The notes beneath the pieces are model-generated. The model did no database searches and had not been told where the DNA came from. It saw only the letters and a program-made list of their open reading frames with translations. This document shows positions 12,094-40,500 of a stretch of 64,000 bases of DNA, in pieces. The DNA is from an uncultured Thermoleophilia bacterium. GTDB lineage: Bacteria; Actinomycetota; Thermoleophilia; UBA2241. The stretch is taken from the NCBI GenBank assembly GCA_963702475.1, contig CAVPCT010000003.1, positions 544,001-608,000 of the forward strand, read 5' to 3'. Position numbers and translations under genes: made by a program. Position 1 is the stretch's first letter. Each line of letters opens with the position of its first letter.

Positions 12094-12549
12094 GTGGTGC
12101 GACTCGAGCTGACGAAGCGCGGCGATTACGCCATCCGGGCGATGCTCGCCCTCGCCTGCGGCGGGGGCGAGCGGATGCTCAGCGCCCCGCGCATCGCCGA
12201 GGAGATGGTGATGCCACCGCGCTTTCTGCCGCAGGTGATGGGCGACCTCGTGCGCGCGGAGCTGGTGACGAGCGAACCGGGCCGGGCAGGAGGCTATCGC
12301 CTTGCCCGGCCCGCCTCCGCCATCAGTCTGCTGGCCATCATCGAGGCCATCGAGGGCGACAGCCGCCGCCAGACGTGCGTACTGCGCGGCGGCCCGTGCT
12401 CCGCCGGCGGCGTCTGCGCCGTGCACGCCGCCTTCTTCGCCGCGCAAGACGCGCTTCTCGCCGAGCTGGACGGCGTCTCGCTGGCCGACGTCAGCGGACC
12501 CGGGCCTGACTGCCGCCTGCCGGTCGAGCAGCAGGCCGCTCGCGCCTGA
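12094..12549 (+). CDS. Rrf2 family transcriptional regulator (IscR/NsrR-like, Fe-S binding)
   Basis: KRGDYAIRAM, GRAGGYRLARPASAISL, C-x6-C-x5-C-x2-H motif. Confidence 0.9.
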   Translation: MVRLELTKRGDYAIRAMLALACGGGERMLSAPRIAEEMVMPPRFLPQVMGDLVRAELVTSEPGRAGGYRLARPASAISLLAIIEAIEGDSRRQTCVLRGGPCSAGGVCAVHAAFFAAQDALLAELDGVSLADVSGPGPDCRLPVEQQAARA

Positions 12550-12741: not shown

Positions 12742-13575
12742 TCACGCCTTCCAGACCGCGATGTCGCCGACGTTGATGTCGGCGGTGGCGTCCACCGGCC
12801 CCATCTTCACCGGCAGGTAGCCGGCCTTCTCGATGAGCAGCGTGTACGTGCCCGGCTCCAGGTCGCGCAGCCAGAAATCGCCGTAGCTGTCGGTCGTGTC
12901 GGAGCAACTGGCGCCGCTCGTCGTGCTGGTCGCCGTGACCGTCGCGCCCTCGGTGCACTCGTCGGCCTCGCTGTCGTACACCGCGCCGGCGATGAACGGC
13001 CTCGGCAGGCCCTTGTAGAACACGCGCGGCTTGACGTCCTCGTGACCGGCCTTGAGCACGGCCTCGGCTTTGGCGATGAGCGCCACGATCTGCGGGTCGT
13101 CCTCGTCGCCGAACGCGAAGGCGCCCGTCGGACACGCGTCCACGCAGCGCGGCTCGGTCCAGCCGTCGTCCAGCAGGTGCGCGCAGAAGGTGCACTTCTG
13201 GGCGATGTTGAGCGAGTCGTTGAAGTAGATGACGTCCTCGTAGGGGCACGCCTCCAGGCAGAGCTGGTTACCGCGGCACTTGTCCGGGTCGATGATCACG
13301 GCCCCGTCGTCGCGCTTGTAGATGGCGTCGGCGTTGCAGGCCGGGATGCACGGGGCCTCGTCGCAGTGCTGGCAGATGCTGTGCGTGTAGGTGACCTTCA
13401 CCTTCGGCACCTGGCCGCGCACCATGTCGGTGATCTTGTTCCAGAACTGGCCGGTGTCGGGCTGCGGCTTGGCGATGGGCGACCAGTCGTTGGCCACGTG
13501 CTCGTCCTTGCAGGCCACCTGGCAGTTGTAGCAGCCGTTGCAGATGTCGTAGTCGATGACGAGGACCTTGCCCAT
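12742..13575 (-). CDS. Transhydroxylase small-subunit-like Fe-S protein (BthL-like) with C-terminal beta-sandwich
   Basis: CNGCYNCQVACKDEH, CQHCDEAPCIPAC, KCTFCAHLLDDGW, KPRVFYKGL, TDSYGDFWLRDLEPGTYTL; start overlaps upstream stop (TGATG). Confidence 0.88.
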   Translation of the reverse strand: MGKVLVIDYDICNGCYNCQVACKDEHVANDWSPIAKPQPDTGQFWNKITDMVRGQVPKVKVTYTHSICQHCDEAPCIPACNADAIYKRDDGAVIIDPDKCRGNQLCLEACPYEDVIYFNDSLNIAQKCTFCAHLLDDGWTEPRCVDACPTGAFAFGDEDDPQIVALIAKAEAVLKAGHEDVKPRVFYKGLPRPFIAGAVYDSEADECTEGATVTATSTTSGASCSDTTDSYGDFWLRDLEPGTYTLLIEKAGYLPVKMGPVDATADINVGDIAVWKA

Positions 13576-16175
13576 CACGCCCTCCCCCAGATGCAGGCTT
13601 CCAATCCGGGCCCGGCACACGGGTGGAACGGCTTCTCGAACGCTTCCGGATACTTGGCCTTGAGTGCTGCCATGTCGGTCTTCTCGATGTCCACGAGGAA
13701 GCCGCTGACGGCGTGGCCGACGGCGTTCTTCGAGGTGGTGTGCCGCGGGACGATGGTGTTGATGGCGCCGCCGCGGTCGAGCTCGCCGGGGACGATGGGG
13801 TCCCACTTGGCGCCGTGGTCGATGTACACGACGTCGGGCATGATGCGCTCGGTCACGTAGGCGCCGGAGAGCACGGCGCCGCGGTCGTTGAAGATCGTGA
13901 CCACGTCGCCGTCCTTGATGCCGTAGCGCTCTGCCGTGGACGGGTGCAGCCAGATGGGATGGTACTGGTAGCCGTCCGGACCGGTGACCTTGCCGGTGTT
14001 GGGGATCTCACGCAGCCAGGTGATGTCCTCGTGCTGCGAATGCACGCTCCAGCGTGGGTGGTTGGAGACCACGAGCAGCGGATACTTCTTGCTGCGCTCC
14101 GTCTCCAGCGTCTCCTCGTGACTGATGCCGCTGGCGACCCACTTGGGCACCGGCGGCCGCTCGAGGTCGTCGGGGAAGTTTTCCGTAAGGCCCTGCGCCT
14201 CGAACTCGAGCTTGCCGGTGGGCGTGGTGAGCGGGTACTTCTCGGGGTCCTTGTAGAAGTTGTAGAACCCGGCCGGCACGTCCTCCCAGCCGTTGTCCGT
14301 GGGGACCGCGTAGTAGCCCTTCTCGTTGAGCTCCTCCCAGGTGATGAGGTCCTCGCAGCGCGAGGTCTCGTACCCGTACTTGATGAGCTCGGGGATGGTC
14401 TTGCCGCCGGTGTACTCCTCCTTGAGGCCGAGGCGCTCGCTGAGCATGACGGCGATCTCGTAGTCGCTGAAGCTCTCGCCCAGCGGCTCGATGCACTTGT
14501 GCTCGGGAAAGAGGAGGTTGTACTGCCCGCTGAAGATGTCGCCGGCGATATCGTCCTCTTCGAGCTTGGTGTTCACGGGGAGGATGATGTCGGCCAGCAG
14601 GCAGTCGTTCTCCAGCCACGGGTGCTGCGCGAACATGAACTCGATGTCCGGGTGGCGCATGGCGTTCACGTAGTCGTTGCCCGAGTTCCAGCAGGTGATC
14701 CAGCTCGGCGAGTCGGTCCACACCATGTGGACCTTGCTGCAGCCGTCGGCCGGGTACTTGTAGTGCACGAACTGGTTGACGCGGTCGGCGGTCTCGGACT
14801 CGCAGCCGTACCAGTCGCACTCGCCCTCGAGGATGGCCTTGGGGATGTACGTCTTGGGGATGAACGACGGGTGGTTGCTCTCGTCCGGGTGGCCGCCGGT
14901 GTAGGCCTTGCGCAGGTACGGCACGCGCAGCGGCTTGGGCTGGGCGTACTGGTCCGGCTTGTCGAACAGGCCCCATTCGATCATCTTGGCCTGGTTCTGA
15001 CCGGGCTTGCCCAGGCCCTGCATGGCCAGGCAGATGCCCTGCAGGCGCGCCGGCTCGGTGGCGTAGGGGCCGCGGATGCCGGGCCCGCCGTTGCCGATGA
15101 CGACCGTGGTGCGCTTGCTCGCCCACTCGTCGGCGAGGGCCTTGATGACGCGCGCCTTGACGCCGCAGATGGGCTCCGCCCACTCCGGTGACTTCTCCAC
15201 GCCGTCCTCGTCGCCCATCACGTAGGCCTCGAACTTGTCGACGCCCACGGCGTGGGTGTCGAGGTACTCCTTGTCGTAGGTGCCCTGCTTGAACCAGCGG
15301 TGGCAGATCGCCAGGTACAGCGCGGCGTCCGTGTTGGGGAGCACCGGGATCCAGCGGTCGGCGTGCACGGCGGCGGCGTAGTTGAGGTCGGGGCACACGT
15401 AGATCTGCTTGATGCCGATCTCACTCCACCAGTAGCTCAGGCGGCTCGGGAGCTGGCCCTGCCAGCCCCACGGGGTGGTCTCCTGGTCGCAGCCCCAGAA
15501 CAGCAGCAGCTCGGCGTTCTTGGAGATGTCCCAGAGCAGGTTGCTCTGCTGGCCCTGGCCGACCGGCTCGCAGCCCCAGAAGTGCTTGTTGCCCCACCAC
15601 CAGCCTTCCCAGCTGTCGGGCTGGCGGATCTGGAGGGTGAAGCCGCCCCAGGCGCGCAGCAGCTTACGCCCCGCGCCGTGGCAGGCCTGGACGACCTTGT
15701 TCTCGCCGTGCTGGTCGCACTGGTACAGCAGGGCGGTCGGCCCGTACTTCTCCTTGATGCGCTGCATCTCGCCGGTGATGACGTCCAGGGCCTCGTCCCA
15801 GGAGATGCGCTTGTACTTGCTCACGCCGCGGTTCTGCGGGTTGCGCTCGCCGTTGGGGTCGAAGTCCACGCGCATCATGGGGTAGCGGATGCGCGCGGGC
15901 GAGTAGACGCGCTTCTTGTAGGCGATGCTGTACGGCGGGATCAGGGTCTTCATGCTGGGCTCGAACGTGCTGCCGCGCACCTCGAACTTCCAGGGGTTCA
16001 GATCCGCCTTCTTGTACTTCCAGTCGTAGTGCATGGGGCGGATGCGGATGATCTTGCCGTCCTTGACGTCGACCATCGACGCGTTGGAGCCGTTCTCCGG
16101 GACGCCGCAGAAGCTGATGTCACGGATCAGGGTCTTTTCCCCCGAGGCTCCGGTCCTGCTCATGTCCTCCGCCAT
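13575..16175 (-). CDS. Divergent pyrogallol transhydroxylase-like molybdoenzyme large subunit (paralog 1)
   Basis: FDPNGERNPQNRG, ISWDEA, PDSWEGWWWG (Ser ligand), HPRWSVH; no Tat signal, no FS0 cysteines; GGAGG SD. Confidence 0.88.
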   Translation of the reverse strand: MAEDMSRTGASGEKTLIRDISFCGVPENGSNASMVDVKDGKIIRIRPMHYDWKYKKADLNPWKFEVRGSTFEPSMKTLIPPYSIAYKKRVYSPARIRYPMMRVDFDPNGERNPQNRGVSKYKRISWDEALDVITGEMQRIKEKYGPTALLYQCDQHGENKVVQACHGAGRKLLRAWGGFTLQIRQPDSWEGWWWGNKHFWGCEPVGQGQQSNLLWDISKNAELLLFWGCDQETTPWGWQGQLPSRLSYWWSEIGIKQIYVCPDLNYAAAVHADRWIPVLPNTDAALYLAICHRWFKQGTYDKEYLDTHAVGVDKFEAYVMGDEDGVEKSPEWAEPICGVKARVIKALADEWASKRTTVVIGNGGPGIRGPYATEPARLQGICLAMQGLGKPGQNQAKMIEWGLFDKPDQYAQPKPLRVPYLRKAYTGGHPDESNHPSFIPKTYIPKAILEGECDWYGCESETADRVNQFVHYKYPADGCSKVHMVWTDSPSWITCWNSGNDYVNAMRHPDIEFMFAQHPWLENDCLLADIILPVNTKLEEDDIAGDIFSGQYNLLFPEHKCIEPLGESFSDYEIAVMLSERLGLKEEYTGGKTIPELIKYGYETSRCEDLITWEELNEKGYYAVPTDNGWEDVPAGFYNFYKDPEKYPLTTPTGKLEFEAQGLTENFPDDLERPPVPKWVASGISHEETLETERSKKYPLLVVSNHPRWSVHSQHEDITWLREIPNTGKVTGPDGYQYHPIWLHPSTAERYGIKDGDVVTIFNDRGAVLSGAYVTERIMPDVVYIDHGAKWDPIVPGELDRGGAINTIVPRHTTSKNAVGHAVSGFLVDIEKTDMAALKAKYPEAFEKPFHPCAGPGLEACIWGRA

Positions 16176-16408: not shown

Positions 16409-16927
16409 TCAGTACGCGCGCAGGGTGTCGAGCCGGGCGGCGAGGAAGGCGGCCAACCCGGCGCCGTCCTCGAGGCCGAAGCGGTGCTCGTGCTCCAGGC
16501 CCGAGTCCGTGACCAGGGCGATGGCCTCGCCGGGGGCGCACAGCGGCTCGGCGTGGCCGGCGCCGAGGCGGAACAGCTCCACGCGGTACGGCGCCGTGCG
16601 CTTGTAGCCTTCGGCGACCACGATGTCGAAGTCGCCGAAGTACGTCTTCACGATCTCGGCGAGTCCGAGCTCGCCGTCGAGCTTGGTGATGAACGCCAGG
16701 CGCTCGGGCGAGGAGATGGCGTAGGCACGGGCTCCGGCCTGGCCGTGCCGCCAGGAATCCTTGCCGGGGTGGTCGATCTCGAAGCTGTGCGCGTCGTGCT
16801 TGACGGTGCCGACGCGCAGGTCGAGCTTGACGAGCTCGGGCACGACCTTCTCGATGAGCGTGGTCTTGCCCGAGTCGCTCTTGCCGACGATGGCGACGAG
16901 GGCCGGCTGCTGCGGTGCGTCGTTCAT
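16409..16927 (-). CDS. mobB: Molybdopterin-guanine dinucleotide biosynthesis protein B
   Basis: GKSDSGKTTL, VKHDAHSFEIDHPGKDSWRH, EGYK. Confidence 0.92.
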   Translation of the reverse strand: MNDAPQQPALVAIVGKSDSGKTTLIEKVVPELVKLDLRVGTVKHDAHSFEIDHPGKDSWRHGQAGARAYAISSPERLAFITKLDGELGLAEIVKTYFGDFDIVVAEGYKRTAPYRVELFRLGAGHAEPLCAPGEAIALVTDSGLEHEHRFGLEDGAGLAAFLAARLDTLRAY

Positions 16928-16978
16928 GCGTGTGATGCTATGCGACGACGCGGTCCCGGCGAAACCCGGCCCGGCAGC

Positions 16979-18037
16979 TCACGCCTCGTACACCTCCACC
17001 TCGACCGCCTTCACCGACACGAACACGGGGCCGCCGTCGTCCAGGTGCATCGAGGCGACGGCGCCATGGGTGACCTCGGCGATGATGGGCAGGTCGCCGC
17101 TCACGTGCGCGCGCACGTGGTTGCCGACGACGTCGAGGTCCTCGACGACGCCTCTCCAGACGTTGCGCGGAGAGCCCTCGGGCAGCGAGCGGTGCAGAGC
17201 CACGGCGCGCGGCGGGATCACGGCGAACACTTCACCGCTGAGCGGGAGCGGGTCGGCGGCGATGAGGCGGTGGCCGCCGGTGAGTACGACGGCGCGCTCC
17301 TCGGCGCGGCCGCGGTACAGGTTCATGCCCAGGAGCTCGGCGACATAGCGCGAGCGCGGGTGCGACGAGAGCTCCTCCGGCGTGCCGGTCTGGACCACGC
17401 GCCCGCCCTCCAGCACGACAAGCCGGTCGGCGAGCGTCATGGCCTCGATGGGGTCGTGGGTGATCACGAGGCAGGTGCCCTCGTAGGCGGCAAGGTGACG
17501 GGAGAGCGCCCGCCGCAGGTCGGCGCGGGCGCCGGCGTCCATGGCGGCCAGCGGCTCGTCGAGCAGCAGGAGCCGCGGGTCGGTCGCCAGGGCCCGCGCC
17601 AGGGCGGCGCGCTGTGCCTGACCGCCGGAGAGGGCGCGCGGCTTTGCCGAGGCGCACGCGTCGAGGCCGACGCGCGCCAGCCAGGCCTGTGCGGCGGCGC
17701 GCGCGGCGGGGCGGTTCGCGCCGCGCGACCGCAGGCCGAACGCCACGTTCTCCAGCACCGTCAGGTGCGGGAACAGCAGGTAGTCCTGGAAGACGACGCC
17801 GATCGCGCGCTGCTCGGTGGGCACGTGGACGCCGGCGGCCGGGTCGTCCAGCACGCTTCCATCCAGGACGACCCGGCCGCCGTCCAGCGGGATCAGGCCG
17901 GCGAGCGCCCGCAGCAGCGTTGTCTTGCCGGCCGCGTTGGGACCGAGCAGGGCCACCACCGTCCCGCTCGCCACGGCGAGCTCCACGTCGAGCGCCAGCT
18001 CACCTTTGCGCAGCGCGACGGCCGCTTCCAGGCTCAC
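16979..18037 (-). CDS. modC: Molybdate ABC transporter ATPase with TOBE domain
   Basis: GPNAAGKT, LSGGQAQR, LLLLDEP; C-terminal TOBE; adjacent to modAB. Confidence 0.88.
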   Translation of the reverse strand: MSLEAAVALRKGELALDVELAVASGTVVALLGPNAAGKTTLLRALAGLIPLDGGRVVLDGSVLDDPAAGVHVPTEQRAIGVVFQDYLLFPHLTVLENVAFGLRSRGANRPAARAAAQAWLARVGLDACASAKPRALSGGQAQRAALARALATDPRLLLLDEPLAAMDAGARADLRRALSRHLAAYEGTCLVITHDPIEAMTLADRLVVLEGGRVVQTGTPEELSSHPRSRYVAELLGMNLYRGRAEERAVVLTGGHRLIAADPLPLSGEVFAVIPPRAVALHRSLPEGSPRNVWRGVVEDLDVVGNHVRAHVSGDLPIIAEVTHGAVASMHLDDGGPVFVSVKAVEVEVYEA

Positions 18038-18059
18038 GCGCTCGCCTCCGCCGGCCGGC

Positions 18060-18998
18060 TCATCTGCTCGGGAACCACCGGCCGCGAAGGGCGACCAGTA
18101 CCGTGAGGCAGATGGCCAGCATGACCAGGCTCAGGGCGATGGCCGAGTCGGGGTCGTTCTGCAGTGCGAGATAGACCGCCAGAGGCATGGTCTGCGTGCT
18201 GCCCGGCAGGTTGCCGGCGAAGGTGATGGTGGCGCCGAACTCGCCGAGGGCGCGGGCCCAGCCCAGCGCGGCGCCGGCGCCCAGCGCCGGCGCGATCAGC
18301 GGCAGGGTCACGCGCCGGAACACAGTCCAGCGTCCGGCGCCAAGTGTGGCCGCCGCGTCCTCGTAGCGCCGATCCATGGCGCGGATGCCGGCCTCCACGG
18401 TGATGATCACGAACGGCATGGCGACGAAGGCCTCGGCGACGATGACGCCGGCCGTTGTGAACGGGAGCGTGAGCCCGAAGGCGTGGTCGAGCACCTGACC
18501 CGCCACGCCGTTGCGCCCGAAGGCGAGCAGCAGCGCCACCCCGCCCACCACCGGCGGCAGCACCATGGGGAGCAGTACGACAGCCCGCACGAGGTTGCGG
18601 CCACGGAACGGTACGCGTGCGAGCAGCCAGGCGAGCGGGACACCGAGCACGAGTGATACGGCGAGGGCCCCGAAGGAGCAGACGAGTGACAGTCTGAGCG
18701 CGGTGAGCACGCCCGGCGCGCCGAGGTCCGAGAGCAGGTGGGGCCAGGGGGCGCGGATCACGAGGGCGGCCAGCGGCAGAGCCAGGAAGGCGACGGCGAG
18801 CACGGCGAGCGGTACGAAGCCGAATGGTGCGCCGGCGCCGCGGCGGGCCGGCGCCTCCGAGCCTCTGCGCTTCCGGCCCCGCGCCCACGGCGACGGCGCT
18901 CCGGCCGGCACGAGCGCGTCACCGGTCACCACGGCGAGGTTCGCCGCGGCCTCCCGCGTGCGCCCTCCCCCCTCGGTCATGTCTGCGCGCTCGTCCAT
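18060..18998 (-). CDS. modB: Molybdate ABC transporter permease
   Basis: LPMVLPPVVGG, ARALGEFGATITFAGN; start uncertain. Confidence 0.92.
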   Translation of the reverse strand: MDERADMTEGGGRTREAAANLAVVTGDALVPAGAPSPWARGRKRRGSEAPARRGAGAPFGFVPLAVLAVAFLALPLAALVIRAPWPHLLSDLGAPGVLTALRLSLVCSFGALAVSLVLGVPLAWLLARVPFRGRNLVRAVVLLPMVLPPVVGGVALLLAFGRNGVAGQVLDHAFGLTLPFTTAGVIVAEAFVAMPFVIITVEAGIRAMDRRYEDAAATLGAGRWTVFRRVTLPLIAPALGAGAALGWARALGEFGATITFAGNLPGSTQTMPLAVYLALQNDPDSAIALSLVMLAICLTVLVALRGRWFPSR

Positions 18999-19017
18999 GG
19001 TGCCCGGCGCCCTCAGC

Positions 19018-19872
19018 TCACTCCGCTGCCCCGAAGCCGAAGCGGCGGAGCGTCTGCTGCCCGGCGTCCGAGAGCACGTACTTGACGAACTGGTCGGCCA
19101 TGAACGTGGAGCCGGCCTCCTTCAGCGTCGCGATGGGGTAGGTGGCCGTGACGTTCTGGTCGCTGGGGATGGTCACCCCGCCGACCTCGCCGCCGGCGGC
19201 CCGCACGTCGCTCACGTAGACGATGCCCGCGTCGGCCTCACCGAGCGCTACCTTGGCGACCACGCCCTTGACGTTCTCCTCGAGCGACACCGGTTTCACC
19301 TTCACGCCCGCGCGCGCGAGGACGTCCGCGGAGTACCTGCCGGCGGGGACCTCGGGCGCGGCCAGGACGACCTTGAGGTCAGGGTCGGCCAGCGAAGCGA
19401 GGCCGGTGACGCCGAGCGGGTTCTCGGGCGCGACGGCGACGGCGAGCTCGTTGGTCGCGAACACCTGAGGAGTGGTCGTGTCGCCGCTGACCCTCTCCAT
19501 GGTCGACGTGTCGGCGGTGGCGAGCACATCGGCCGGCGCCCCTTGTCCGATCTGGGCCACCAGGTCCTGGCTCCCGGCGAAGTCGAACACGACCTTCACG
19601 CCGGGGTGGTCCTGCTCGAAGTCGGCGCCGATCTCGGTGAACGCCTCGCTCAGCGACGCCGCCGCGAGGACGTGCAGCGTGGTCGCATCGTCCCCGGACG
19701 AACCGCCGCAGGCAGCAGAACCCAGCAGGCTCGCGACGGCGAGGGCGAGGAACGCCGCGAAGGCAAGCCTGCGTGCGAGACAGGCGAGAGGTGGTGGCTG
19801 AGCCACCGGCCCGGCCGCCCGCGGCGGTCCTGCCCCGGCGGCCCGACCCGGCGGGGTCGAGCGACGAGTCAT
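19018..19872 (-). CDS. modA: Molybdate ABC transporter substrate-binding lipoprotein
   Basis: Lipobox SAAC, AAASL, FAGSQDL, VPAGRY, GIVYVSD. Confidence 0.9.
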   Translation of the reverse strand: MTRRSTPPGRAAGAGPPRAAGPVAQPPPLACLARRLAFAAFLALAVASLLGSAACGGSSGDDATTLHVLAAASLSEAFTEIGADFEQDHPGVKVVFDFAGSQDLVAQIGQGAPADVLATADTSTMERVSGDTTTPQVFATNELAVAVAPENPLGVTGLASLADPDLKVVLAAPEVPAGRYSADVLARAGVKVKPVSLEENVKGVVAKVALGEADAGIVYVSDVRAAGGEVGGVTIPSDQNVTATYPIATLKEAGSTFMADQFVKYVLSDAGQQTLRRFGFGAAE

Positions 19873-19880
19873 GTCCCTCG

Positions 19881-20018
19881 CTCCTTTCCAAGCACGGGGA
19901 GGTCGAGGCGTTTCCACCCCGGCCCACGGCGGCGACACCTCGCCGCCCCACGGTCTTTCCGTGGTACGGCCCGGCGCCCGTAGCAGGCGGGCTGCCGTAG
20001 GGCGAAGGGCTTGGAGTC
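19881..20018 (-). ncRNA. Moco (molybdenum cofactor) riboswitch
   Basis: Minus strand CUCCAAGC...CCUACG...CUACGG...GGCCG...GGAAA...GGGGUGGAAACGCCUC...CCUCCCCGUGCUUGGAAAGGAG; UCCAAGC/GCUUGGA P1 pairing abuts the modA SD; matches the recalled Moco RNA consensus. Confidence 0.8.
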
Positions 20019-20106
20019 GGACGGGCAGAAGGGTAGCACGGTGGTCGGCGGGTGTGCCAGTCGGCCGGCGGCCTTGTGGCCGGGGCCGCGAGGCCCGCGG
20101 GGACAC

Positions 20107-21243
20107 CTACCGGTCGAAGCCGGCGAGATCGAAGCGCCGGACCAGGTACTCGGCCAGGGCCGGCACCTCGTCGCGGGCGAAGCGGTGGTGGTGTGGCAGG
20201 TCCTCATCGGTGACGAGCGCCAGGGTGACCTGCGCGTCGAGCAGCGGGGCCTCACGGCCCTCGCCGGGGCTGAAGACCTCCACGACCCAGGGCGTCTCGT
20301 GGCGGTACCCTTCGCACACCACGACGTCGTAGGAGCTGAAGTAGCGCGAGACGATCCTGTGCAGGCTGGGCTCGCCGGTCAGGTCGCTGACGAAGGCGAA
20401 CCGCGATGCCGATCCGACGGCGTAGGCGTGCGCGCCGGCCTGGCTGTGACGCCACGAGTCCTTGCCCGGAGTGTCGATGTCGAAGCGTGCCACGCGCTTG
20501 ATGGCTGCCACGCTGAGGCCGCGGCGCGTGAGCTCCGGGATGAGCCTCTCGACGAGTGTCGTCTTGCCGCTCCCCGAGCGGCCGACGACGCCGAGCACGA
20601 GCGGCCCGGAGCCCGTGGCGCCGGGTCCGGCGGCCTCGTCCGGCGCCTCGCCGGCGAGGCGCCGCGCCTCGGCCCAGTCGCCCGGCGTGTTGACGTTGAA
20701 GAACGGCGCCGGGTCGGCGAACGGGATCCGGCGCACCCGCACCAGCGGGAAGAGATCGAGGATGCTGTGCGCGCCGGCGGCCAGCAGCGCCTCGATGTGC
20801 GGCAGGCAGCCAGGCGCATACACGGCGTGCAGCGGCTCCCAGTGGTCGCCGACGACCGGCGTCGCGACGTCCACGCCGGCGGCCTCGCGAAGCACACGCT
20901 CGACGGCCGAGGTCTGCGGAAACGCCACGTCGGTCGCCAGCGCGAAGAACGGCTCGCCGTACCGCGTGAGCACTGAGGCGATCCCGGCGAGCGGCGAGCC
21001 GGTGACGACGTCGGGCACGACCTCCACGCCTGCCGGCAGGTCCTCCGGCGCCTGTGCGGCGTCTCGCACCGAGAGCGCGACGACAGGGAAGATGCCGCGC
21101 AGGAACGCGAGGTTGCGCTGCAGGAGGGTCTCGCCGCCCAGGCTGAGGCGTCGCTTGTCGCGCCCCAGGCGGCGTGCCTCGCCGCCGGCGAGCAGGGCGG
21201 CGACGCGGATGCCGTACGTGTCGATGCGGGCGGACTGGCTCAC
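20107..21243 (-). CDS. mobA: MobA-MobB fusion (Moco guanylyltransferase plus MobB)
   Basis: N-half LLAGGEARRLGRDK...EPLHAVY...FFNVNTP; C-half GRSGSGKTTL...PGKDSWRH. Confidence 0.9.
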   Translation of the reverse strand: MSQSARIDTYGIRVAALLAGGEARRLGRDKRRLSLGGETLLQRNLAFLRGIFPVVALSVRDAAQAPEDLPAGVEVVPDVVTGSPLAGIASVLTRYGEPFFALATDVAFPQTSAVERVLREAAGVDVATPVVGDHWEPLHAVYAPGCLPHIEALLAAGAHSILDLFPLVRVRRIPFADPAPFFNVNTPGDWAEARRLAGEAPDEAAGPGATGSGPLVLGVVGRSGSGKTTLVERLIPELTRRGLSVAAIKRVARFDIDTPGKDSWRHSQAGAHAYAVGSASRFAFVSDLTGEPSLHRIVSRYFSSYDVVVCEGYRHETPWVVEVFSPGEGREAPLLDAQVTLALVTDEDLPHHHRFARDEVPALAEYLVRRFDLAGFDR

Positions 21244-21913: not shown

Positions 21914-24518
21914 ATGGGTCATACGCAGAGGATGACGAACGCCACCACCGGCGGTCCCCTCTTCGTCGACGTGGAGGACGGGAAGATCGTGCGCATGTTC
22001 CCGATCGACCTCGACGAGGAGGACAAGGGCGACTGGGTGATCGAGGCGCGGGGCAGGAAGTTCAGCCCCCCGCGCCGCACCACGCTCTCCCCGCACGCGC
22101 AGGCGCAGCGCTCTATGGTCTACTCGCCGAACCGGATCCTGTACCCGATGAAGCGTGTGGACTGGGACCCGGAGGGCGAGCGCAACATCCAGAACCGCGG
22201 CGTGAGCGGCTACGAGCGCATCAGCTGGGACGAGGCCCTCGACCTGGTCACCACCGAGCTCGTCCGCGAGAAGCGCGAGAACGGTCCCGGATCCATCCTC
22301 ACCACCTGCAGCTCGCACCACCTGTGGGGCAACCTGGGCTACCGGCACAGCGCCTACTACAGGTTCCTGAACCTCATGGGCATGGTCCACACGGCCCACA
22401 ACCCGGACAGCTGGGAAGGCTGGCACTGGGGCGCCATGCCCATGTGGGGCAACTCGCACCGCCTCGGGATCCCGGAGCAGTACGACCTCCTCGAGGACGC
22501 CCTCAAGCACACCGAGATGATCGTGTTCTGGTCGTCCGATCCGGAGTCCACCGGCGGCGGCATCTACAGTGCCTTCGAGAGCACTTCACGGCGCTACTGG
22601 ATGAAGGAGCTCGGCATCAAGATGGTGTTCGTCGACCCGTACTACAACCCGACCGCCGAGCTGTTCAGCGACAAGTGGTTCGCACCGCGCCTGGGCACCG
22701 ACGTCGCCTTCGGCCTCGGCATCGCCCACGTGTGGCTGGCCGAGGACCTGTACGACAAGGAGTACGTGGCCGCGCGCACCCACGGGTTCGACGAGTGGAA
22801 GGACTACGTCCTCGGGCAAGACGGACAACGTGCCGAAGACGCCGGAGTGGGCCGAGACCGAGACCGGCGTCCCCGCCCGCCAGATCCGCGCCCTGGCCCG
22901 CGAGTGGGGCACGAAGAAGACCATGCTCGCCGCCGGCGGCCTGGGCGGCTGGGGCGGTGCCTGCCGCTCCGCCACCGGCAACGAGTGGGCGCGCACCATG
23001 GTCGCCCTGGCCGCCATGCAGGGCTACGGCAAGCCGGGCGTCAACATCTGGGGCACCTCGCAGGGGGCGCCGTCGGACTGCGCCTTCGTCTTTCCCGGCT
23101 ACGCCGAGGGCGGCATGTCCGGCGACCCTGAGAAGTCGGCGGCGGCCTACCGCATGCTCTACCGCCTGTTCGCCCACGACACCGGCCTGCATCCCACGGT
23201 GAACGCGCACGACTCCACCGAGGGCATAGCCGTCCCGCGCCTGCGCATCCCCGAGGCGATGATGCACGAGAAGTTCGAGTGGCGCGGCAAGGGCTTCTGC
23301 GGTCCCAGCATCCAGAGCCAGATGCAGAAGTACGAGTACCCGGCCCCGGGTTACCCCTTCGTGACCATGTACTGGCGCTACGGCGGCTCGTTCTTCGGCA
23401 CCATGCAGCAGACCAACCGCTACGTGAAGGCGTACCGCGAGGGCGGCGTGCGCACCGTGGTCAACCAGTCCATCTGGATGGAGGGCGAGGCCAAGTACGC
23501 CGACATCATCCTGCCGGCCTGCACCAATTTCGAGCGCTGGGACATGAGCGAGTTCGGCAACTGCTCGGGCTACATCCCGGACAACCACAACCAGACCAAC
23601 CACCGCGTGATCGTCTTCCAGAAGAAGTGCATCGAGCCGCTCGGCGAGAGCAAGTCGGACTACGACATCTTCGCCGCCGTGGCCGGGCGCATGGGCCTGG
23701 GCGACGTGTTCACCGAGGGCGGCATGGACGAGTACGACTGGTGCCGCGCCTACTTCGACGCCACCGACCTCCCGAAGATCACCACCTGGGAGCGGTTCGA
23801 GAAGAAGGGCTACGTGGTGGTGCCCTTCCCCGACGACTACAAGAGCACGCCGGCCATGCGCTGGTTCGCCGAGGGCCGCAAGCGCGACACCCCGGACTGG
23901 GGCCCGCGCCCGGGCGACACGGTGGGCTTCCACGGCCTGCAGACGCCGTCCGGCAAGATCGAGTTCGTGAGCAAGACGCTCCAGAACTTCGAGCTGACGG
24001 TCAAGGACCCCGAGCGGCCGGCCATGGGCCCGCAGTTCATCCCCAGCTGGGAGGGCCACCACACCACCGAGCTGTACGACAGGTACCCGCTGCAGATGGT
24101 GAGCCCGCACCCGCGCTTCAGCTTCCACACCATGGGCGACTCCAAGGGCACGTGGCTGAACGAGGTCGACGAGCACCGCATCCTGCACGACGACGGCCAC
24201 CGCTACTGGATCATCCGGCTCAACTCCAAGGACGCGGAGGCGCGCGGCCTCGCCGACGGCGACCTCGTGCGCGCCTACAACGACCGCGGCGAGGTCATCC
24301 TGCACGTCCAGCTGACGGAACGGGTGGCCCCCGGTACGGTACACTCCTACGAGAGCTGCGCCGACTACCTGCCCACCGGCGAGCCGGGGGCGTCGGCCGA
24401 CGTGGCCGGGTGCGTGAACATCCTGACCAGCAAACGGTTCATCACGCCGACGTCCAACGCAATGTCGAACAACTCCTGCCTCATCCAGGTCGAGAAGTGG
24501 GAGGGGAAGGCCTCATGA
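21914..24518 (+). CDS. athL: Pyrogallol-phloroglucinol transhydroxylase large subunit (paralog 2, canonical); +1 frameshift near 22815
   Basis: TNATTGGPLFV, SSHHLWGNLGYRHS, HNPDSWEGWHWG, FPGYAEGG, NCSGYIPDN, RKRDTPDWGPR closely match recalled Pelobacter acidigallici AthL; removing one G in ctcgggcaag restores YVLGKTDNVPKT. Confidence 0.88.
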
Positions 24519-25348
24519 AGAGCTGGCACATGACCATCGACGTGGAGCGCTGCCACGACTGCAACGACTGCTTTCTCGCCGACAAGGACGAGTTCGTCGG
24601 CAACGACTTCCCGCCCTACTCGGCCCCCCAGCCCTGGCACGGCCACCGCTGGATGAACATCAAGCGCAAGGAGCGCGGCCAGTACCCCATCGTGCAGACT
24701 GCCTACCTGCCGACGCCGTGCATGCACTGCGACGCGGCGCCGTGCCTCACCGCCGACGGCGCCGTGCACAAGCGCGCGGACGGCCTCGTCATCATCGACC
24801 CGGTCAAGGCCAAGGGCCGCAAGGAGATCGTCGCGAGCTGCCCCTACAGCGTCATCTACTGGAACGACGAGCTCGAGCTGCCGCAGAAGTGCACCGGCTG
24901 CGCCCACCTGCTCGACGACGGCTGGACCGAGACGCGTTGCAGCCAGGTGTGCCCCACGGAGGCGATCAAGTACGTCTCCTGCGAGGAGGCCGAGTTCGAC
25001 GCGCTCGTGGCCGCCGAGGGCCTCGAGCGCTACCGCGGCAACCTCGGCACCCAGCCGCGCGTCTGGTACAAGAACCTGCACCGCTGGGAGAAGGCCTTCG
25101 TGGCCGCCAGCGTGGTCCGCGGCGACGACGACGAGTGCGCCGAGGGCGCGACCATGAGCGTGGCCCGCGGCGGCCAGGCCTGCGGCGAGGCCGCCGCCGA
25201 CCTCTTCGGCGAGGTGCTCGTCGACAAGCTCGCGCCGGGCGCCGAGTACGACGTCACCATCACGCTCGACGGCTACGAGCCGGCGCAGTGCACGGTGACG
25301 CTGGAGAAGAGCCTCAACCTCGGGACGATCACCCTGGCCGAGGCCTGA
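24515..25348 (+). CDS. bthL: Pyrogallol transhydroxylase small subunit
   Basis: GHRWMNIKRKERGQYP, PTPCMHCDAAPC, IDPVKAKGRKEI, QKCTGCAHLLDD, PRVWYKNL; ATGA overlap with athL. Confidence 0.9.
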   Translation: MKSWHMTIDVERCHDCNDCFLADKDEFVGNDFPPYSAPQPWHGHRWMNIKRKERGQYPIVQTAYLPTPCMHCDAAPCLTADGAVHKRADGLVIIDPVKAKGRKEIVASCPYSVIYWNDELELPQKCTGCAHLLDDGWTETRCSQVCPTEAIKYVSCEEAEFDALVAAEGLERYRGNLGTQPRVWYKNLHRWEKAFVAASVVRGDDDECAEGATMSVARGGQACGEAAADLFGEVLVDKLAPGAEYDVTITLDGYEPAQCTVTLEKSLNLGTITLAEA

Positions 25349-28422: not shown

Positions 28423-28488
28423 TTGACCCTGTCCGTGCGCCTGCGCTATCGTTCTATTCAGCGGAATGATAGTTCCGATATTCGGAAC
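28423..28488 (+). promoter_or_regulatory. Promoter with tandem IclR-type operator
   Basis: TTGACC-N18-TATCGT, then gttctattcagcggaat and GTTCCG-atatt-CGGAAC (28472-28488; perfectly inverted arms). Confidence 0.72.
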
Positions 28489-28540
28489 GAAACGGCGGAT
28501 CCGCAGCGATCCCGCCACGGCTTCAGGCGAGGAGGCGGAC

Positions 28541-31500
28541 ATGGCGACGCGAGGGATGCGGCGGGCGGCGCGCACGCTGGACAGGGCGAAGGGCAAGCTC
28601 GCCGCTATCCAGTTCGCGGCCGCGCTGTCCGGCCTTGAGGTCCTGCTGCGCACCACGGCCGCGCGGCACCCGCGGTTCGCTGCGCGGCTCAGGCAGCGCG
28701 ACCTGGTCGCGCTGATCCGCCTGGCCGACGGCAGCATCGCCCGTGCGTACTCCATCCGTGACGGCAGGGTCCGTTCCCGGTCGGGCCTGCACCCGTCGCC
28801 CGACCTCACGATGACCTTCGACTCGGCGGAGGTCGCCAACCGCGTGATGCGGCCTGACCGCGACTACCTCGAGTTCATCGACGCGCTCAAGAACTTCCAG
28901 ATGCACGTCGAGGGCCCCGACGATCTCGCCGTGTGGTTCTCGGAGACGCTCCAGTCGCTGCTCAGCGCCGGTCTCGAGTTCGGCACCGACGCGGGCGAAG
29001 GCGTGCGCCGCTACACGAGTAACACCAACGGCGGGCCCGGTCTTCGTCTACGTGCGAGGACGGCCGGATCCTGCGCATCACGCCAATCGAGTTCGACGCG
29101 GATGATGCGCAGCCGTGGACCATCCACGCACGCGGCACGGCGTTCACGCCGCCGCGCAAGACCACCGTCAGTTCGCACACGCTGGCCTGGAAGTCGCTGA
29201 TCTACTCGCCCGATCGCCTGCTCTACCCGATGAAGCGCGTGGACTGGGACCCGGACGGCGAGCGCAACCCGCAGAACCGCGGCGTCTCCGGATACGAGCG
29301 CATCGGCTGGGACGAGGCGCTCGACCTGGTGGTCGCGGAGATCAAGCGCGTGAAGCGCGAGCACGGGCCGGGCGCCATCATGAACGGCAGCGGCTCGCAC
29401 CACACCTGGGGCGTGCTCGGCTACTGGCTGAGCGCCCGCATCCGCTTCTTCAACATGCTGGGCTGGACCCCTGTGATGCACAACCCCGACAGCTGGGAGG
29501 GCTGGTACTGGGGCGCCGCCCACCATTGGGGCCAGACGGCGCGAAACGGCGGTGGCGAGACCTACGGCACGGTGGAGGACCTGCTGCGGCACGCGGAGAT
29601 GGTCGTGTTCTGGTCGTCCGACCCGGAGGCCACGAGCGGCGTGTATGGCGCGCACGACGGGACGATCCGCCGGCAGTGGCTCAAGGATCTCGGCATCCCG
29701 CTCGTGCACATCGACCCATACCACAACCACACGGCGTCCTGGATGGGGGGCAAGTGGCTGGCGCCGCGGCCGGGGACGGACAGCGCGCTCGTGCTGGCGA
29801 TCGCGCATGTGTGGATGACGGAGGGTCTCTACGACGCGGAGTACGTCGCCGAGCGGACCGTCGGGTTCGAGAAGTGGCGCGCCTACGTCCTCGGCGAGGA
29901 GGACGACGTCGCCAGAACGCCGGAGTGGCAGGAGGCAGAGACCGGCGTGCCCGCGCGCGAGGTGCGTGCGCTCGCGCGCGCGTGGGGCAAGAAGAAGACC
30001 TACCTCGCCGCCGGCGGCCTCGTCGGCTTCGGCGGCGCCTGCCGCACCGCCACCGGCACTGACTGGGCCCGCGGCGTGGTCTGCCTCATGGCCATGCAGG
30101 GTCTCGGTAAGCCGGGCGTGAACATGGGCTGCCTGCAACAGGGCACGCCGCTCGACACGCACTTCTTCTTTCCGGGGTACGCCGAGGGCGGTTACTCCGG
30201 TGACCTCTACGGCACCGCACTGAGCATCAACATGTACCAGCGCATGCCGCAGCTGCCCACCGTCAACACGGTGTCCCAGGTCGTGCCACGCCTCAGGATC
30301 CCCGAGGCCGTCATGGACGGCCACGTGGAGAGCTGGCCCACGGATTCGAAGTCGATCGAGGGCCAGTTCATGCGCTACGAGTACCCGGCCCCCGGTCACA
30401 GCGAGGTCAAGCTGTACTACAAGTACGGCGGCTCGCACTTCGGCACCATGGTCGACACCAACCGCTACGCGCGCATGTACCGCTCGGACAAGCTGGAGTG
30501 CGTCGTGAACCAGGCCATCTGGATGGAGGGCGAGACGAAGTTCGCCGACCTCATCCTGCCGGCGTGCACCAACTTCGAGCGCTGGGACATCAGCGAGTCC
30601 GCCAACTGCGGCGGCTACATCCAGCACGCCTACACGCAGTGCAACCACCGCGTGCTGGTCATGCAGCACAAGTGCATCGAGCCGCTCGGCGAGTCGCGCT
30701 CCGACCACCAGATCTTCCTCGACATCGCCACGCGGCTGGGCCTGGGGTCCATGTACTCCGAAGGCGTCACCGAGCTGGACTGGTGCAAGCGTCTCTTCGA
30801 CGGCACCGACCTGCCGCGGCGCGTCGGCTGGAAGGAGTTCCTGAAGAAGGGCTACTACGTGGTGCCGGCGCCGCCGGAGGAGCGGCGCGACCCCGTCTCG
30901 TACCGCTGGTTCGCCGAGGGCCGGCAGAAGGACACGCCGGAGCTCACGCCGCTGCCGGCCGACTACACGGGGGACTACGGGTACGGGCTCCAGACGCAGT
31001 CGGGCAAGCTCGAGTTCGAGGCGTCGAGCCTCAAGCGTTTCGACGCGGACGACCCCGAGCGCCCGCCGCTCATGAAGTACGTGCCGGCGTGGGAGGGTCC
31101 GCACGCCGCGGAGCTGTTCGCGAAGTACCCGCTGCAGCTCATCACCCCGCACCCCCGGCACAGCTTCCACACGCAGAGCGACGGCAAGCGCGCGGTGGTG
31201 AACGACGTCAAGGACCACCGCGTGCTGGTGGACGGCTACTACTACTGGGTGGTGCGGGTGAGCCCCGCCGACGCGGCGGCCCGGGGTCTGCGGCACCACC
31301 AGCTGGTCAAGGTCTTCAACGACCGCGGAGCGGTGATCTGCGCGGTCCAGCTGACGGAACGCGTCCCGCCCGGTACAGTGCACGCATACGAGTCGTCGGC
31401 CGTCTACGAGCCCATCGGCGAGCCGGGTGAGTCCCCGGACAGGGGCGGGTGCATGAACACGCTCACGCCGGGGCGCAGCATCATCCGCGCGTCGCACTCC

Positions 31501-31554
31501 CTGGCTGCGAACTCCTGCCTCGTGCAGGTGGAGGCCTGGACGCCGGACGACTGA
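28541..31554 (+). CDS. Transhydroxylase-like molybdoenzyme large subunit with N-terminal SCP2-like domain (paralog 3); two +1 frameshifts near 29039 and 29058
   Basis: ORF 28541 runs into TSNTNGGP; removing two G restores GGPVFVYVRDGRILRITP in frame with ORF 29230-31554 (SHHTWG, NPDSWEGWYWG, FPGYAEGG, NCGGY). Confidence 0.82.
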
Positions 31555-32411: not shown

Positions 32412-32556
32412 CGCGGCCGCCGAGGTGCCGGGACCGCGCACCGCTGCGGCAGGCCGGCACGTCCGCCGCCCGGCCATGGTGCGATCGGCTGGGCTCTCGG
32501 CCGGTCGTCGTACAGCCTGCCGCGCCTGCGCCCGGTCTCACGGGGAGGACAGATCG

Positions 32557-33318
32557 ATGAACGTGTTCGACATAGCCGGGCTGCGCGCGCTCGTGGTCGG
32601 GGCCGGCGGCCTCGGCGGCGCCATCGCCGCCGGCTTCGCGGCGCACGGCGCCGACGTGGCGGTCGCCGACGTGGACCTGGCGCGCGCCCGGGCGCTCGCC
32701 GCCCAGCTCGAGGCCGACGAAGTGGTGGCCGCCGGGGTGCGGGTGGACGTGACCGACGAGCACTCGGTCGCGGCCATGGTCGCGGCCGCCGTGGGCGCTC
32801 TCGGTGGCCTGGACACCCTCGTCAACGCCGCCGGCGTCACGGTGCGCAAGCGCGCCGAGGACCTCTCGCCGGGTGAGTGGCGCCGCATCCTCGACGTCAA
32901 CGCCACCGGCACGTTCCTGTGCTGCCAGGCCGCCGGCGCGCACATGGCAGGCTCCGGCGGCGGCGCCATCGTCAATCTGTCCTCGGTGCGCGGCCGCTAC
33001 GGGGCCACCTTCGGACAGGCGGAGTACTCGGCCAGCAAGGGCGCGGTGGACTCGCTCACGCGCTCGCTGGCCGCCCAGTGGGCCGAGCTCGGCATCCGCG
33101 TGAACGCGGTGGCGCCGACCTTCGTCGAGACCGATCTGACGCGCGCGGTCCTGGCCGACGAGGCCTTCGCGACCACGCTGCGCGCGAGCATCCCCATGGG
33201 GCGGTGGGCGGAGACCGCGGACGTCGTCGGCCCGGTGCTGTTCCTGGCTTCACCTGCATCCGCGTTCGTCACCGGACAGATCCTCTACGTGGACGGCGGT
33301 CTGACGGCTCGGGTGTAG
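32557..33318 (+). CDS. Short-chain dehydrogenase/reductase (likely NAD-preferring)
   Basis: GAGGLG, acidic ADVD after beta2, NAAG, YSASK. Confidence 0.9.
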   Translation: MNVFDIAGLRALVVGAGGLGGAIAAGFAAHGADVAVADVDLARARALAAQLEADEVVAAGVRVDVTDEHSVAAMVAAAVGALGGLDTLVNAAGVTVRKRAEDLSPGEWRRILDVNATGTFLCCQAAGAHMAGSGGGAIVNLSSVRGRYGATFGQAEYSASKGAVDSLTRSLAAQWAELGIRVNAVAPTFVETDLTRAVLADEAFATTLRASIPMGRWAETADVVGPVLFLASPASAFVTGQILYVDGGLTARV

Positions 33319-33372
33319 CTGCGCACGGCGGCTCTCCGCCCCTACGGCCCGCCCGCACCGGGCCGCCGAGTC

Positions 33373-33436
33373 TTGACCTCCTCCCGCCCCTGCACTACTG
33401 TTCGCATCACGGAATAGCTGTTCCGCATCGTGGTCA
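33373..33436 (+). promoter_or_regulatory. Promoter with tandem IclR-type operator
   Basis: TTGACC-N17-TACTGT, then ttcgcatcacggaa and gttccgcatcgtggtc; shares 17 bp (agctgttccgcatcgtg) with the 16250 promoter. Confidence 0.7.
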
Positions 33437-33602
33437 CCACCGTGTGAGGCAGCCGGTCGAGGAGGGCGGCCTCGAGACCGCGTGCACGACGCATCCCGGC
33501 TCCGGCGCGGTCCGCCGGGACGCTCATCGCCGTTCGATCGTCGCAAGTGTCCAGTGCAGCGCCATCCGCGTGGCTGCCGCAGGGAACGAGAGGAGAGGTG
33601 TC

Positions 33603-34400
33603 ATGGAGCGTGAGATCTGGAGCGTGGAGAAGATCCGCAGCCTGTTCGACATGACGGGCAAGACGGCGGTCGTGACCGGCGGCTCGGGGGCGTTCGGCGG
33701 CGAGGCCGCCAAGGCGCTCGCCGCCTACGGCGCCAACGTTGTGGTCACCAGCCGCCGCGCCGAGAGCCTCGAGTCGACCGCCGCCGCCATCAAGGAGGCC
33801 ACCGGCTCCGAGGTGCTGGCCGTGTCGTGCGACTGCGTCGACCCTGAGAGCGTCGAGGCCATGGTCCAGAAGACCGTGGACACGTTCGGCTCCGTCGACG
33901 TCCTCATCACCGCTGCCGGTCAGGCCAACCGCTTCGCCGCCGAGGAGTTCCCCATCGACGAGTGGCAGAAGGTCATGGACTCCCTCGTCAAGGGCACCTA
34001 CCTGTGCTGCCAGGCGGCCGGCAAGCGCATGATCGCCCAGGGCTCCGGCAAGATCATCACCGTCGGCTCCGTGCGCGGCGAGTTCGGGCACCCCGGCGGC
34101 TACTCCGCCTACGGCACCGCCAAGGGCGCCGTCCACCTGCTCACCAAGCAGCTCGCCACCGAGTGGGCCAAGTACCACATCAACGTGAACAGCATCGCCC
34201 CGTGCATCTTCTGGACGCCGCTCACGCAGCAGGTCATCGAGAACCCCGAGCTCAAGGCGATCTTCCTGTCGCGCATCCCTTGGGGCCGCGTGGCCGACCC
34301 CCAGGACTTCATGGGCGCCGTGCTGTACCTGTCGTCGGCCGCATCGGACTTCGTGACCGGCGCCATCATGGCGGTCGACGGCGGCAGCACCGCCGGCTGA
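33603..34400 (+). CDS. SDR, candidate NADPH-dependent phloroglucinol reductase
   Basis: TGGSGAFG, SRR after beta2 (NADP preference), YGTAK; context next to dehydrogenase, cyclase and BKACE. Confidence 0.8.
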   Translation: MEREIWSVEKIRSLFDMTGKTAVVTGGSGAFGGEAAKALAAYGANVVVTSRRAESLESTAAAIKEATGSEVLAVSCDCVDPESVEAMVQKTVDTFGSVDVLITAAGQANRFAAEEFPIDEWQKVMDSLVKGTYLCCQAAGKRMIAQGSGKIITVGSVRGEFGHPGGYSAYGTAKGAVHLLTKQLATEWAKYHINVNSIAPCIFWTPLTQQVIENPELKAIFLSRIPWGRVADPQDFMGAVLYLSSAASDFVTGAIMAVDGGSTAG

Positions 34401-34422
34401 GTCGCGACGCGGCGAGAGGAGG

Positions 34423-35370: not shown

Positions 35371-35437
35371 CGGCCGGCGGACGGCGCACCGCGAGGTGCC
35401 GAGCGCCTCGGCCGCGGCGCGCCGCAAGGAGCGCGGG

Positions 35438-36220: not shown

Positions 36221-36283
36221 CACTGGCTTCTCGGCGCGGGTAGCGTATCCACGATACGGCGAGTATGTTCCGTATCGCGGACC
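36217..36283 (+). promoter_or_regulatory. Promoter with tandem IclR-type operator
   Basis: TTGACA-N18-TAGCGT, then atccacgatacggc and gttccgtatcgcggacc. Confidence 0.7.
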
Positions 36284-36435
36284 AGCCGAGGGACCGACGG
36301 CCCCTCGTGAAGACATCGGCGCACGAGCCGCCGTTCGCCGCCGTGGGAGGTACGGTTCGTGAGTACCGGCCGCCGGTCCGGGCGCGAATGCCCGGCGGCC
36401 GAGTCAGCAACGAGACGAGGAGAAGAGGGACTGCC

Positions 36436-37395: not shown

Positions 37396-37526
37396 GGTCC
37401 GCCTTTCGCCCCCAGGGGCCGACAGCGTGGCGCCCGTCGGCGTTCGCCACGGGACGGCACCGACTGCGGCTGGCAGGGTTCGTTTTCGTTCAGAGAAGCC
37501 GGAGACGGCACGAGAAGGAGTGAGGC

Positions 37527-37877: not shown

Positions 37878-37930
37878 CGGGGACCCGGCCGCTCCGCGGC
37901 CACGCACGCACCACCCTGGAGGAGGCCACC

Positions 37931-40422: not shown

Positions 40423-40500
40423 TCTCGATCGATCCGGCATGCAGTCCGGCGCTGACCGAGCACGCGAGGAGGTCCCTGTGATGCGGGGCGGTGATAACCC

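Follow-up and report, generated by a model that had tools for sequence, protein, structure and literature searches.

The pyrogallol-phloroglucinol transhydroxylase AthL/BthL (PgtL) of Pelobacter acidigallici (structures 4v4c, 4v4d and 4v4e) is a cytoplasmic alpha-beta enzyme with a molybdenum bis(pyranopterin guanine dinucleotide) (Mo-bisPGD) cofactor and an AhtL-like N-terminal domain, with which anaerobes rearrange trihydroxybenzenes of plant origin. Its beta subunit BthL combines a ferredoxin-like domain with a C-terminal CarboxypepD_reg-like barrel and holds three [4Fe-4S] clusters only, without the ligands of a fourth iron-sulfur site (FS4). The characterised members of the family are this transhydroxylase and resorcinol hydroxylase only. 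In excerpts of PMC10100899, RhL and PgtL are treated as a Ser-coordinated family in which net hydroxylation is known from resorcinol hydroxylase, and the enzyme RhLS of Azoarcus anaerobius, which forms hydroxyhydroquinone, is the family precedent for a net, water-dependent hydroxylation. The breakdown of polyphenols without oxygen bears on the residence of carbon in peat, wet soils and sediments. Here, a gene pair at positions 12742-16175 (minus strand) in a 64,000-nucleotide stretch of DNA from an uncultured Thermoleophilia bacterium (contig CAVPCT010000003.1, positions 544,001 to 608,000; hereafter the window) is compared with these systems. The pair represents a known kind of enzyme in an uncharacterised form, in a family for which net hydroxylation is already known. 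As judged from sequence, it is best explained as a predicted cytoplasmic alpha-beta molybdoenzyme whose clade, itself uncharacterised, is sister to the transhydroxylase and resorcinol hydroxylase.

The alpha gene (13575..16175, minus strand) encodes an AthL-like Mo-bisPGD catalytic subunit of 866 amino acids. It starts with an ATG at 16175, just ahead of which lies GCAGGAGG as the ribosome-binding site, and its stop codon occupies 13575-13577. The beta gene (12742..13575, minus strand; 277 amino acids) begins with an ATG at 13575 that has one base in common with the stop of alpha and is closed by a stop codon ending at 12742, so that the limits given in the first-pass annotation of the window run exactly from the alpha start to the end of the beta stop. 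The alpha subunit carries the Pfam domains PF21423 AhtL-like_1st (43.4 bits, cut-off 27), PF00384 Molybdopterin and PF01568 Molydop_binding, and the beta subunit a four-cluster ferredoxin-like domain (Fer4_11, 6.4e-26) followed by a C-terminal CarboxypepD_reg-like barrel (2.6e-13). The closest solved structures are 4v4c_A for alpha (4.6e-133) and 4v4c_B for beta (5e-45). NCBIfam profiles (BisC, TorA, DmsA and others) matched alpha far under their curated cut-offs in every case, with 317.9 bits against a cut-off of 1017.55 for bisC_fam and 257-268 bits against 909-1465 for TorA. The alpha N-terminus has a single cysteine, no Fe-S motif and no RR or twin-arginine signal, suggesting that the enzyme is cytoplasmic and lacks a cluster FS0, as does AthL. 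Orthologs of alpha found by homolog search are 865-868 amino acids long and 85-95% identical.

To compare the active sites, motifs were positioned by a six-frame search and AthL numbering was taken from an alignment to 4v4c_A. The molybdenum-ligand serine lies in PDSWEGW (15600..15620, minus strand), in which it and the flanking Asp and Trp correspond to AthL Asp174, Ser175 and Trp176. In an alignment of representatives this motif is specific to the AthL-like group. The SSHHxWG motif of AthL is replaced by DQHGENK (15696..15716, minus strand), whose histidine is the equivalent of AthL His144, and nine residues beyond it the equivalent of Arg153 is a cysteine. The Tyr560 loop (NCSGY) is gone through a 10-residue deletion, and in a 92-sequence alignment the FPGYAEGG segment with Tyr404 falls into a 15-column gap for the clade of the alpha subunit, after which comes a conserved AYTGGHP motif. 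The retention of PDSWEGW, the change to DQHGENK and the loss of NCSGY had all been read from the letters before, and these readings were borne out. The same is true of the motifs quoted for the canonical AthL/BthL-type pair of the window (21914..25348, plus strand; alpha 21914-24518, beta 24515-25348 without FS4 ligands), in which SSHH is at 22310, PDSWEGW at 22403, NCSGY at 23559, CMHCD at 24719 and KAKGRK at 24806, all on the plus strand. We take His144, Asp174 and Tyr404 to be the proposed catalytic residues of AthL, in which Tyr404, Tyr560 and Arg153 presumably shape the pocket for the second substrate.

The beta subunit has 15 cluster cysteines in four classical groups: C12, C15, C18 and C22 (group I), C68, C71, C76 and C80 (group II), C100, N103, C106 and C110 (group III), and C128, C131, C144 and C148 (group IV). 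Groups II and III are encoded at 13246..13374 (minus strand), and in group III N103 stands where the second cysteine would be. The motifs CQHCDEAPC (13348-13374, minus strand) and KCRGNQLC (13258-13281, minus strand), from which an extra iron-sulfur site had been proposed in the first-pass annotation, are present and conserved, and they give the exact three-cysteine pattern of FS4 in NarH and EbdB. Assignment of the cysteine groups to clusters follows what we take to be the NarH scheme. In this scheme C80, C100 and C106 are the proposed ligands of a [3Fe-4S] FS4, and C110 would belong to FS3. BthL has no cysteine at the positions of C80, C100 and C106, where the alignment to 4v4c_B shows G/K, A and L.

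Residues 60-135 of beta align without gaps to NarH (1q16_B) and EbdB (2ivf_B), with cysteines at the same three FS4 positions. The aligned FS4 stretch reads dkCrgNqlCleaCPy in beta, dkCrgWrmCitgCPy in NarH and erCkgHrhCveaCPy in EbdB. All three share C-x2-X-x2-C-x3-CP, which in beta is C-x2-N-x2-C-x3-CP together with the fourth cysteine of group II; X is W in NarH, H in EbdB, N in the window's beta and H in 13 of its relatives. Excerpts of PMC8840923 describe for ethylbenzene dehydrogenase (EbDH) three [4Fe-4S] clusters plus a [3Fe-4S] FS4 at +70 mV, through which electrons exit toward heme b, and an almost identical FS4 ligation in NarGHI. Because FS4 of EbDH and NarGHI has the same three-cysteine pattern, [3Fe-4S] is the natural reading of the fourth site, and the fourth cluster of beta is probably of this type. 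The NarH- and EbdB-containing enzymes differ from the pair in having Asp-ligated molybdenum, an alpha with FS0 and a heme b partner to which FS4 passes its electrons, none of which is found in the pair, and they lack the C-terminal barrel domain of the window's beta. An AlphaFold2 model of beta (predicted local distance difference test score 80.8; 48-row alignment; residues 27-63 poorly defined) was compared with known folds, a comparison with the AthL/BthL crystal structure having been suggested with the original description. The best match was 4v4c_B (E 6.7e-23, template modelling score 0.64), followed by the four-cluster subunits PsrB, ArrB, EbdB and PcrB.

Conservation of the fourth site was assessed in 77 loci from species-representative genomes, all of them metagenome-assembled genomes (MAGs). 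The loci gave 67 beta sequences, to which the two of the window were added. In 49 of these 69 betas the ligands C80, C100 and C106 are present and position 103 is N, H or S; the residues at positions 80/100/103/106/110 are C-C-N-C-C in 35, C-C-H-C-C in 13 and C-C-S-C-C in one. Because it recurs in this number of sequences, the pattern is not due to chance. Eighteen of the remaining betas lack all three ligands, one is PsrB-like with four cysteines and one is garbled by a frameshift. The FS4-type betas are 58-97% identical, and all three ligands are kept in 49/49. Every DQHG[ED]-type alpha with a called adjacent beta is paired with an FS4-type beta (42/42, 41 in the loci plus the window), and every SSHH/NCSGY-type pair has a beta without FS4 (13/13, 12 in the loci plus the canonical pair of the window). 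Thus the presence of FS4 co-varies with the remodelled alpha pocket, and the type of alpha predicts the type of beta without exception. Locus L054 was considered as an exception and rejected, as its beta belongs to the preceding SSHH-type alpha. A further 34 alphas have no called partner, some being frameshifted or at contig ends, and one sub-branch (QNDQHGE, 66-68% identical) seems truly beta-less. In four loci of this sub-branch (L066, L072, L073 and L077) a nitroreductase-family flavoprotein gene directly follows alpha on the same strand, and in Dehalococcoidia a gene of the same family lies divergently upstream along with a RidA gene. This flavoprotein could be a redox partner.

In a FastTree tree of 99 sequences, retained from 142 by a redundancy filter (811 columns, rooted on DorA/TorA-like representatives), the alpha subunit falls among the 32 tips of a DQHGE clade (support 1.0). 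The AthL ortholog and the RhL-like sequences are in an SSHH clade (15 tips, support 1.0), which does not include the alpha in question. The protein had previously been called a divergent AthL paralog; this wording is not supported, since its clade is separate and lies outside the AthL/RhL-like one. The tree also shows many more uncharacterised lineages, several of them with N-terminal signal or anchor sequences. The host genome has about 14 AthL-like alphas, two of which are approximately 50% identical to the alpha of the pair and are sister to the DQHGE clade (0.991). They are encoded on contig C9 of this genome (G000:C9) at 113930-116518, with a beta at 113082-113885, and at 154179-156749, with a beta at 156788-157606. 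Both alphas have the motif DGHGE[SC]K and both betas a full four-cysteine FS4 (CTGCRSC and CTGCKNC). Ferredoxin-like and NrfD-like genes behind one of these paralogs were considered as partners but look like a separate Psr-type operon, and were not used. Because the outgroups have FS4, the AthL branch is the one that lost it and the DQHGE clade kept it, which agrees with the earlier statement that the beta subunit keeps an extra site; outgroup betas and the 50%-identity paralogs of the genome have the site as well. As far as the ligand patterns go, the family shows a series of four-cysteine FS4, three-cysteine FS4 and no FS4, which would amount to a clear stepwise loss of an electron wire.

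The alpha subunit has thousands of database relatives in bins assigned to Thermoleophilia, other Actinomycetota, Dehalococcoidia, Desulfobacterota and Acidobacteriota. The best 120, at 81-95% identity, belong to bins with the names Thermoleophilia, Actinobacteria, Chloroflexota/Dehalococcoidia and Aminicenantes, and among the 77 loci are representatives of Thermoleophilia, Actinomycetota, Dehalococcoidia, Geopsychrobacteraceae, Desulfobacteraceae, Korobacteraceae and one archaeal bin. Identity within the clade is 80-95% across phyla. A Desulfuromonadales MAG has a copy with 82-87% identity to the actinobacterial and chloroflexal ones, which suggests transfer between phyla under strong constraint. 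Two homolog searches (120 best hits), the 77 loci and ten cluster look-ups brought up no cultured holder of the clade. Literature searches for the four-cluster form or the DQHGENK clade found no paper on either, only genome surveys with the label pyrogallol hydroxytransferase. Among these, Hug 2013 (PMC3971608) mentions "two operons" of transhydroxylase in such Chloroflexi and does not separate the types, and the genome survey of Wasmund 2016 (PMC4959651) names such genes pyrogallol hydroxytransferases. The clade is routinely labelled "pyrogallol hydroxytransferase" or "TMAO (trimethylamine-N-oxide) reductase", and both labels are probably wrong.

Within the 77 loci, an SSHH-type alpha lies within 7 kb of the pair in 25; of the 43 loci that span 14 kb or more, 16 have one. 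In Dehalococcoidia the DQHGE and canonical pairs are convergent neighbours beside a BKACE gene. A Desulfobacteraceae bin has the DQHGE pair behind an RhL-like pair and ahead of Amidohydro_2 genes, and in a Geopsychrobacteraceae MAG an AthL ortholog (1224 bits to 4v4c_A) comes directly after the DQHGE pair. Genes for Amidohydro_2, SDR and BKACE proteins and Liv-type transporters recur near the pair. Clustering of the neighbours yielded mod/mob, IclR, Liv-type ABC, SDR, nitroreductase-family, RidA, BKACE and Amidohydro_2 genes, each in at most 25 loci. In four loci of Thermoleophilia (L005, L015, L030 and L001) the gene after beta is TatA/E-like, although alpha and beta carry no twin-arginine signal.

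At the genome level, 201 genomes of the class were sampled. The divergent query matched 42 of them and the canonical query 41, essentially the same genomes. In the genus of the window 10 of 21 genomes have both types and the other 11 have neither; given this patchy distribution, the gene is accessory, gained or lost with the island. In one family (f1), 13 genomes have an ortholog at 82% identity or more, and 12 of them have a canonical alpha at 81% or more as well; in another (f4) there are two to five copies of the clade per genome. Many of the matches in class genomes at 49-52% identity are frames of about 843 amino acids with one internal TGA or TAG (e.g. G086:C36:7602-9218 and G191:C3:479870-481483), which may simply represent the stop codon of alpha where the alignment ends.

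The pair thus shows a Mo-Ser site with half of the AthL pocket, predicted ligands for four clusters, co-inheritance and a polyphenol-catabolic neighbourhood. These four features suggest a net electron-transferring phenol (de)hydroxylase with electrons passing via FS1-FS4 to or from a soluble partner, a reading to which we give about an even chance of being correct. A phenolic substrate, probably a di-, tri- or tetrahydroxybenzene that is channelled into the phloroglucinol pathway, would bind at the molybdenum as in AthL. It would undergo net two-electron hydroxylation with water, or dehydroxylation, rather than a redox-neutral hydroxyl swap, and the electrons would pass along Mo, FS1, FS2, FS3 and FS4 to or from a soluble partner encoded away from the pair. 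The reaction might run either way, as a [3Fe-4S] exit cluster is typical both of substrate oxidisers (EbDH) and of higher-potential electron takers (NarGHI). Catechol dehydroxylases, which belong to a different branch of the superfamily, nearer acetylene hydratase, and have an N-terminal Fe-S cluster, offer an analogy in function for the dehydroxylase direction. Excerpts of PMC7028382 and PMC11887054 describe those of gut Actinobacteria (Dadh and relatives) as Mo bis-PGD enzymes by which a phenol loses a hydroxyl, with a net uptake of electrons. If electron transfer by the pair is real, it adds a redox step, as sink or source, to anaerobic phenol catabolism, and the origin of the transhydroxylase co-substrate, an old question, becomes directly testable.

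A special case of the net (de)hydroxylase would connect the two enzyme types of the island. The pair might use water to convert pyrogallol or phloroglucinol by hydroxylation to 1,2,3,5-tetrahydroxybenzene, releasing electrons through the [3Fe-4S] FS4 to a soluble carrier and so supplying the co-substrate of the transhydroxylase, a role raised in the first-pass annotation. It would then be the missing "starter" when trihydroxybenzenes are fermented anaerobically. This would explain why both types travel together between phyla, as the canonical enzyme cannot turn over without its co-substrate. Canonical pairs are linked to the clade in Actinomycetota, Chloroflexota and two families of Desulfobacterota, which, like the 12 of 13 genomes of family f1, agrees with such a role, yet all of this evidence is co-occurrence, and own expansions as in family f4 and beta-less sub-branches would be odd for a single priming function. 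An SSHH-type alpha was not seen within 7 kb in 52 of the 77 loci, many of them short. We regard this specific role as improbable.

An enzyme without net electron transfer, that is a redox-neutral transhydroxylase or isomerase for another phenol pair, is a rather unlikely but weightier alternative, for which the hydroxyhydroquinone-to-phloroglucinol steps reportedly described for Pelobacter massiliensis serve as an example. FS4 would then be a structural or ancestral remnant, as FS1-FS3 are in AthL/BthL. AthL/BthL is the closest solved relative, Asp174, Ser175, Trp176 and His144 are kept, and the pair adjoins canonical pairs in several phyla. However, the Tyr404 and Tyr560 segments and Arg153 are missing or replaced, and FS4 was fully lost in the AthL branch yet is kept in all FS4-type betas, which suggests selection on FS4 where it is kept. 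A non-phenol enzyme, such as a cytoplasmic S- or N-oxide reductase or another oxo-transfer reductase, would fit the automatic names "trimethylamine-N-oxide reductase" and "S/N-oxide reductase-like", the bisC_fam, TorA and DmsA matches, the very high conservation and the mod/mob adjacency, the latter seen in Thermoleophilia only. We consider it very improbable, since the profile matches are all far under the curated cut-offs, PDSWEGW is specific to the AthL-like group and the gene is patchy in its genus and tracks the polyphenol island. In addition, we know of no BisC-, TorA- or DorA-type enzyme with a beta subunit of this kind.

Several observations weigh against the net (de)hydroxylase reading itself. 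The ligands of FS1-FS3 are as invariant in the canonical betas without FS4, so that conserved cysteines are no proof of an electron exit; to our knowledge the canonical transhydroxylase has no net redox reaction, and it retains its clusters without a known redox role. Locus L017 pairs an RhL-like alpha with an FS4-less beta (the only RhL-like alpha with a called partner, n=1), and, judging from this single case, net hydroxylation may be possible without FS4. Within 7 kb of the pair in the 77 loci, neither a third subunit nor a redox partner (heme b gamma subunit, membrane anchor or ferredoxin) is conserved, no genome-wide search having been made, and this equally favours a redox-neutral enzyme. 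The mod/mob genes are the sole immediate neighbours in Thermoleophilia and are uninformative on the substrate. The co-occurrence at genome level is among kin with one common island and is therefore not independent evidence. A search for literature naming Tyr404, His144 or Asp174 of the transhydroxylase found none. Contigs from four RNA runs in three studies, with at least 88% likeness, extend over both genes, two of them across the alpha-beta junction; the shares in the runs are small (0.12-0.17), and the contigs stand for the presence of relatives' sequence in RNA libraries, not for level, strand or transcript ends. They are a weak hint of expression in relatives, since relatives are their source, DNA may be among them and in any case only conserved coding sequence would be matched; uncovered stretches beyond the genes carry no weight.

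Upstream of the pair, on the same strand, are genes for molybdate uptake and the cofactor (16412..21243, minus strand): mobB, modC (ABC ATPase plus TOBE), modB, a modA-like binding protein and a mobA-mobB fusion. Their Pfam domains are MobB, ABC_tran with TOBE, BPD_transp_1, SBP_bac_11 and NTP_transf_3 with MobB, and the same mod/mob order is found in related Thermoleophilia loci. The canonical alpha with which the pair had been compared is split by a frameshift near 22.82 kb (break at approximately 22815-22830), with frames at 21914-23131 and 22830-24518; the sequence at GACGGACAACGTG looks one base short. Because several other AthL-like genes of the genome are also broken, such breaks may be indel errors of the assembly, not signs of pseudogenes.

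Between the canonical pair and a phloroglucinol-type block lie genes for an IclR regulator, a binding protein and a third, RhL-like alpha (28466..31554, plus strand; GSHHTWG...GYWLS), which has no adjacent beta. Its main frame is 29023-31551, and an N-terminal extension of about 190 amino acids, common to RhL-like proteins, is in another frame (28466-29200), the switch being just past NTNGGP. In a by-eye comparison with the supplement of PMC7327174, RhL has PSHHQWGNIGYYLS, PDSWEGWYW and an N-terminal extension. On account of the SHH-type motif, PDSWEGWYW and the extension, RhL resembles this third alpha and not that of the pair, where DQHGENK...QACHGA stands in place of the RhL-type SHHxWG...GY[YW]LS and there is no extension.

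The phloroglucinol-type block (32425..38758, plus strand) comprises, by Pfam, two SDRs, a 3-hydroxyacyl-CoA-dehydrogenase-like (3HCDH-like) gene, one gene from the "cyclase" family, an unknown gene of 116 amino acids and a BKACE gene. According to excerpts of PMC10470551, these are the families to which PGR (phloroglucinol reductase), TfD, DPGC and TAL of the phloroglucinol pathway belong. A Liv-type ABC transporter follows the block at 38860-42795. On the other side of the pair, an Rrf2-family regulator (12094..12549, plus strand; PF02082, 8.1e-33) is convergent with beta. Just beyond it, at 7263-12050 (plus strand), is a separate operon for a Tat-exported Psr/Phs-like molybdoenzyme, with an alpha subunit containing FS0 (910 amino acids), a four-cluster beta subunit (237 amino acids) and an NrfD-type membrane subunit (450 amino acids).

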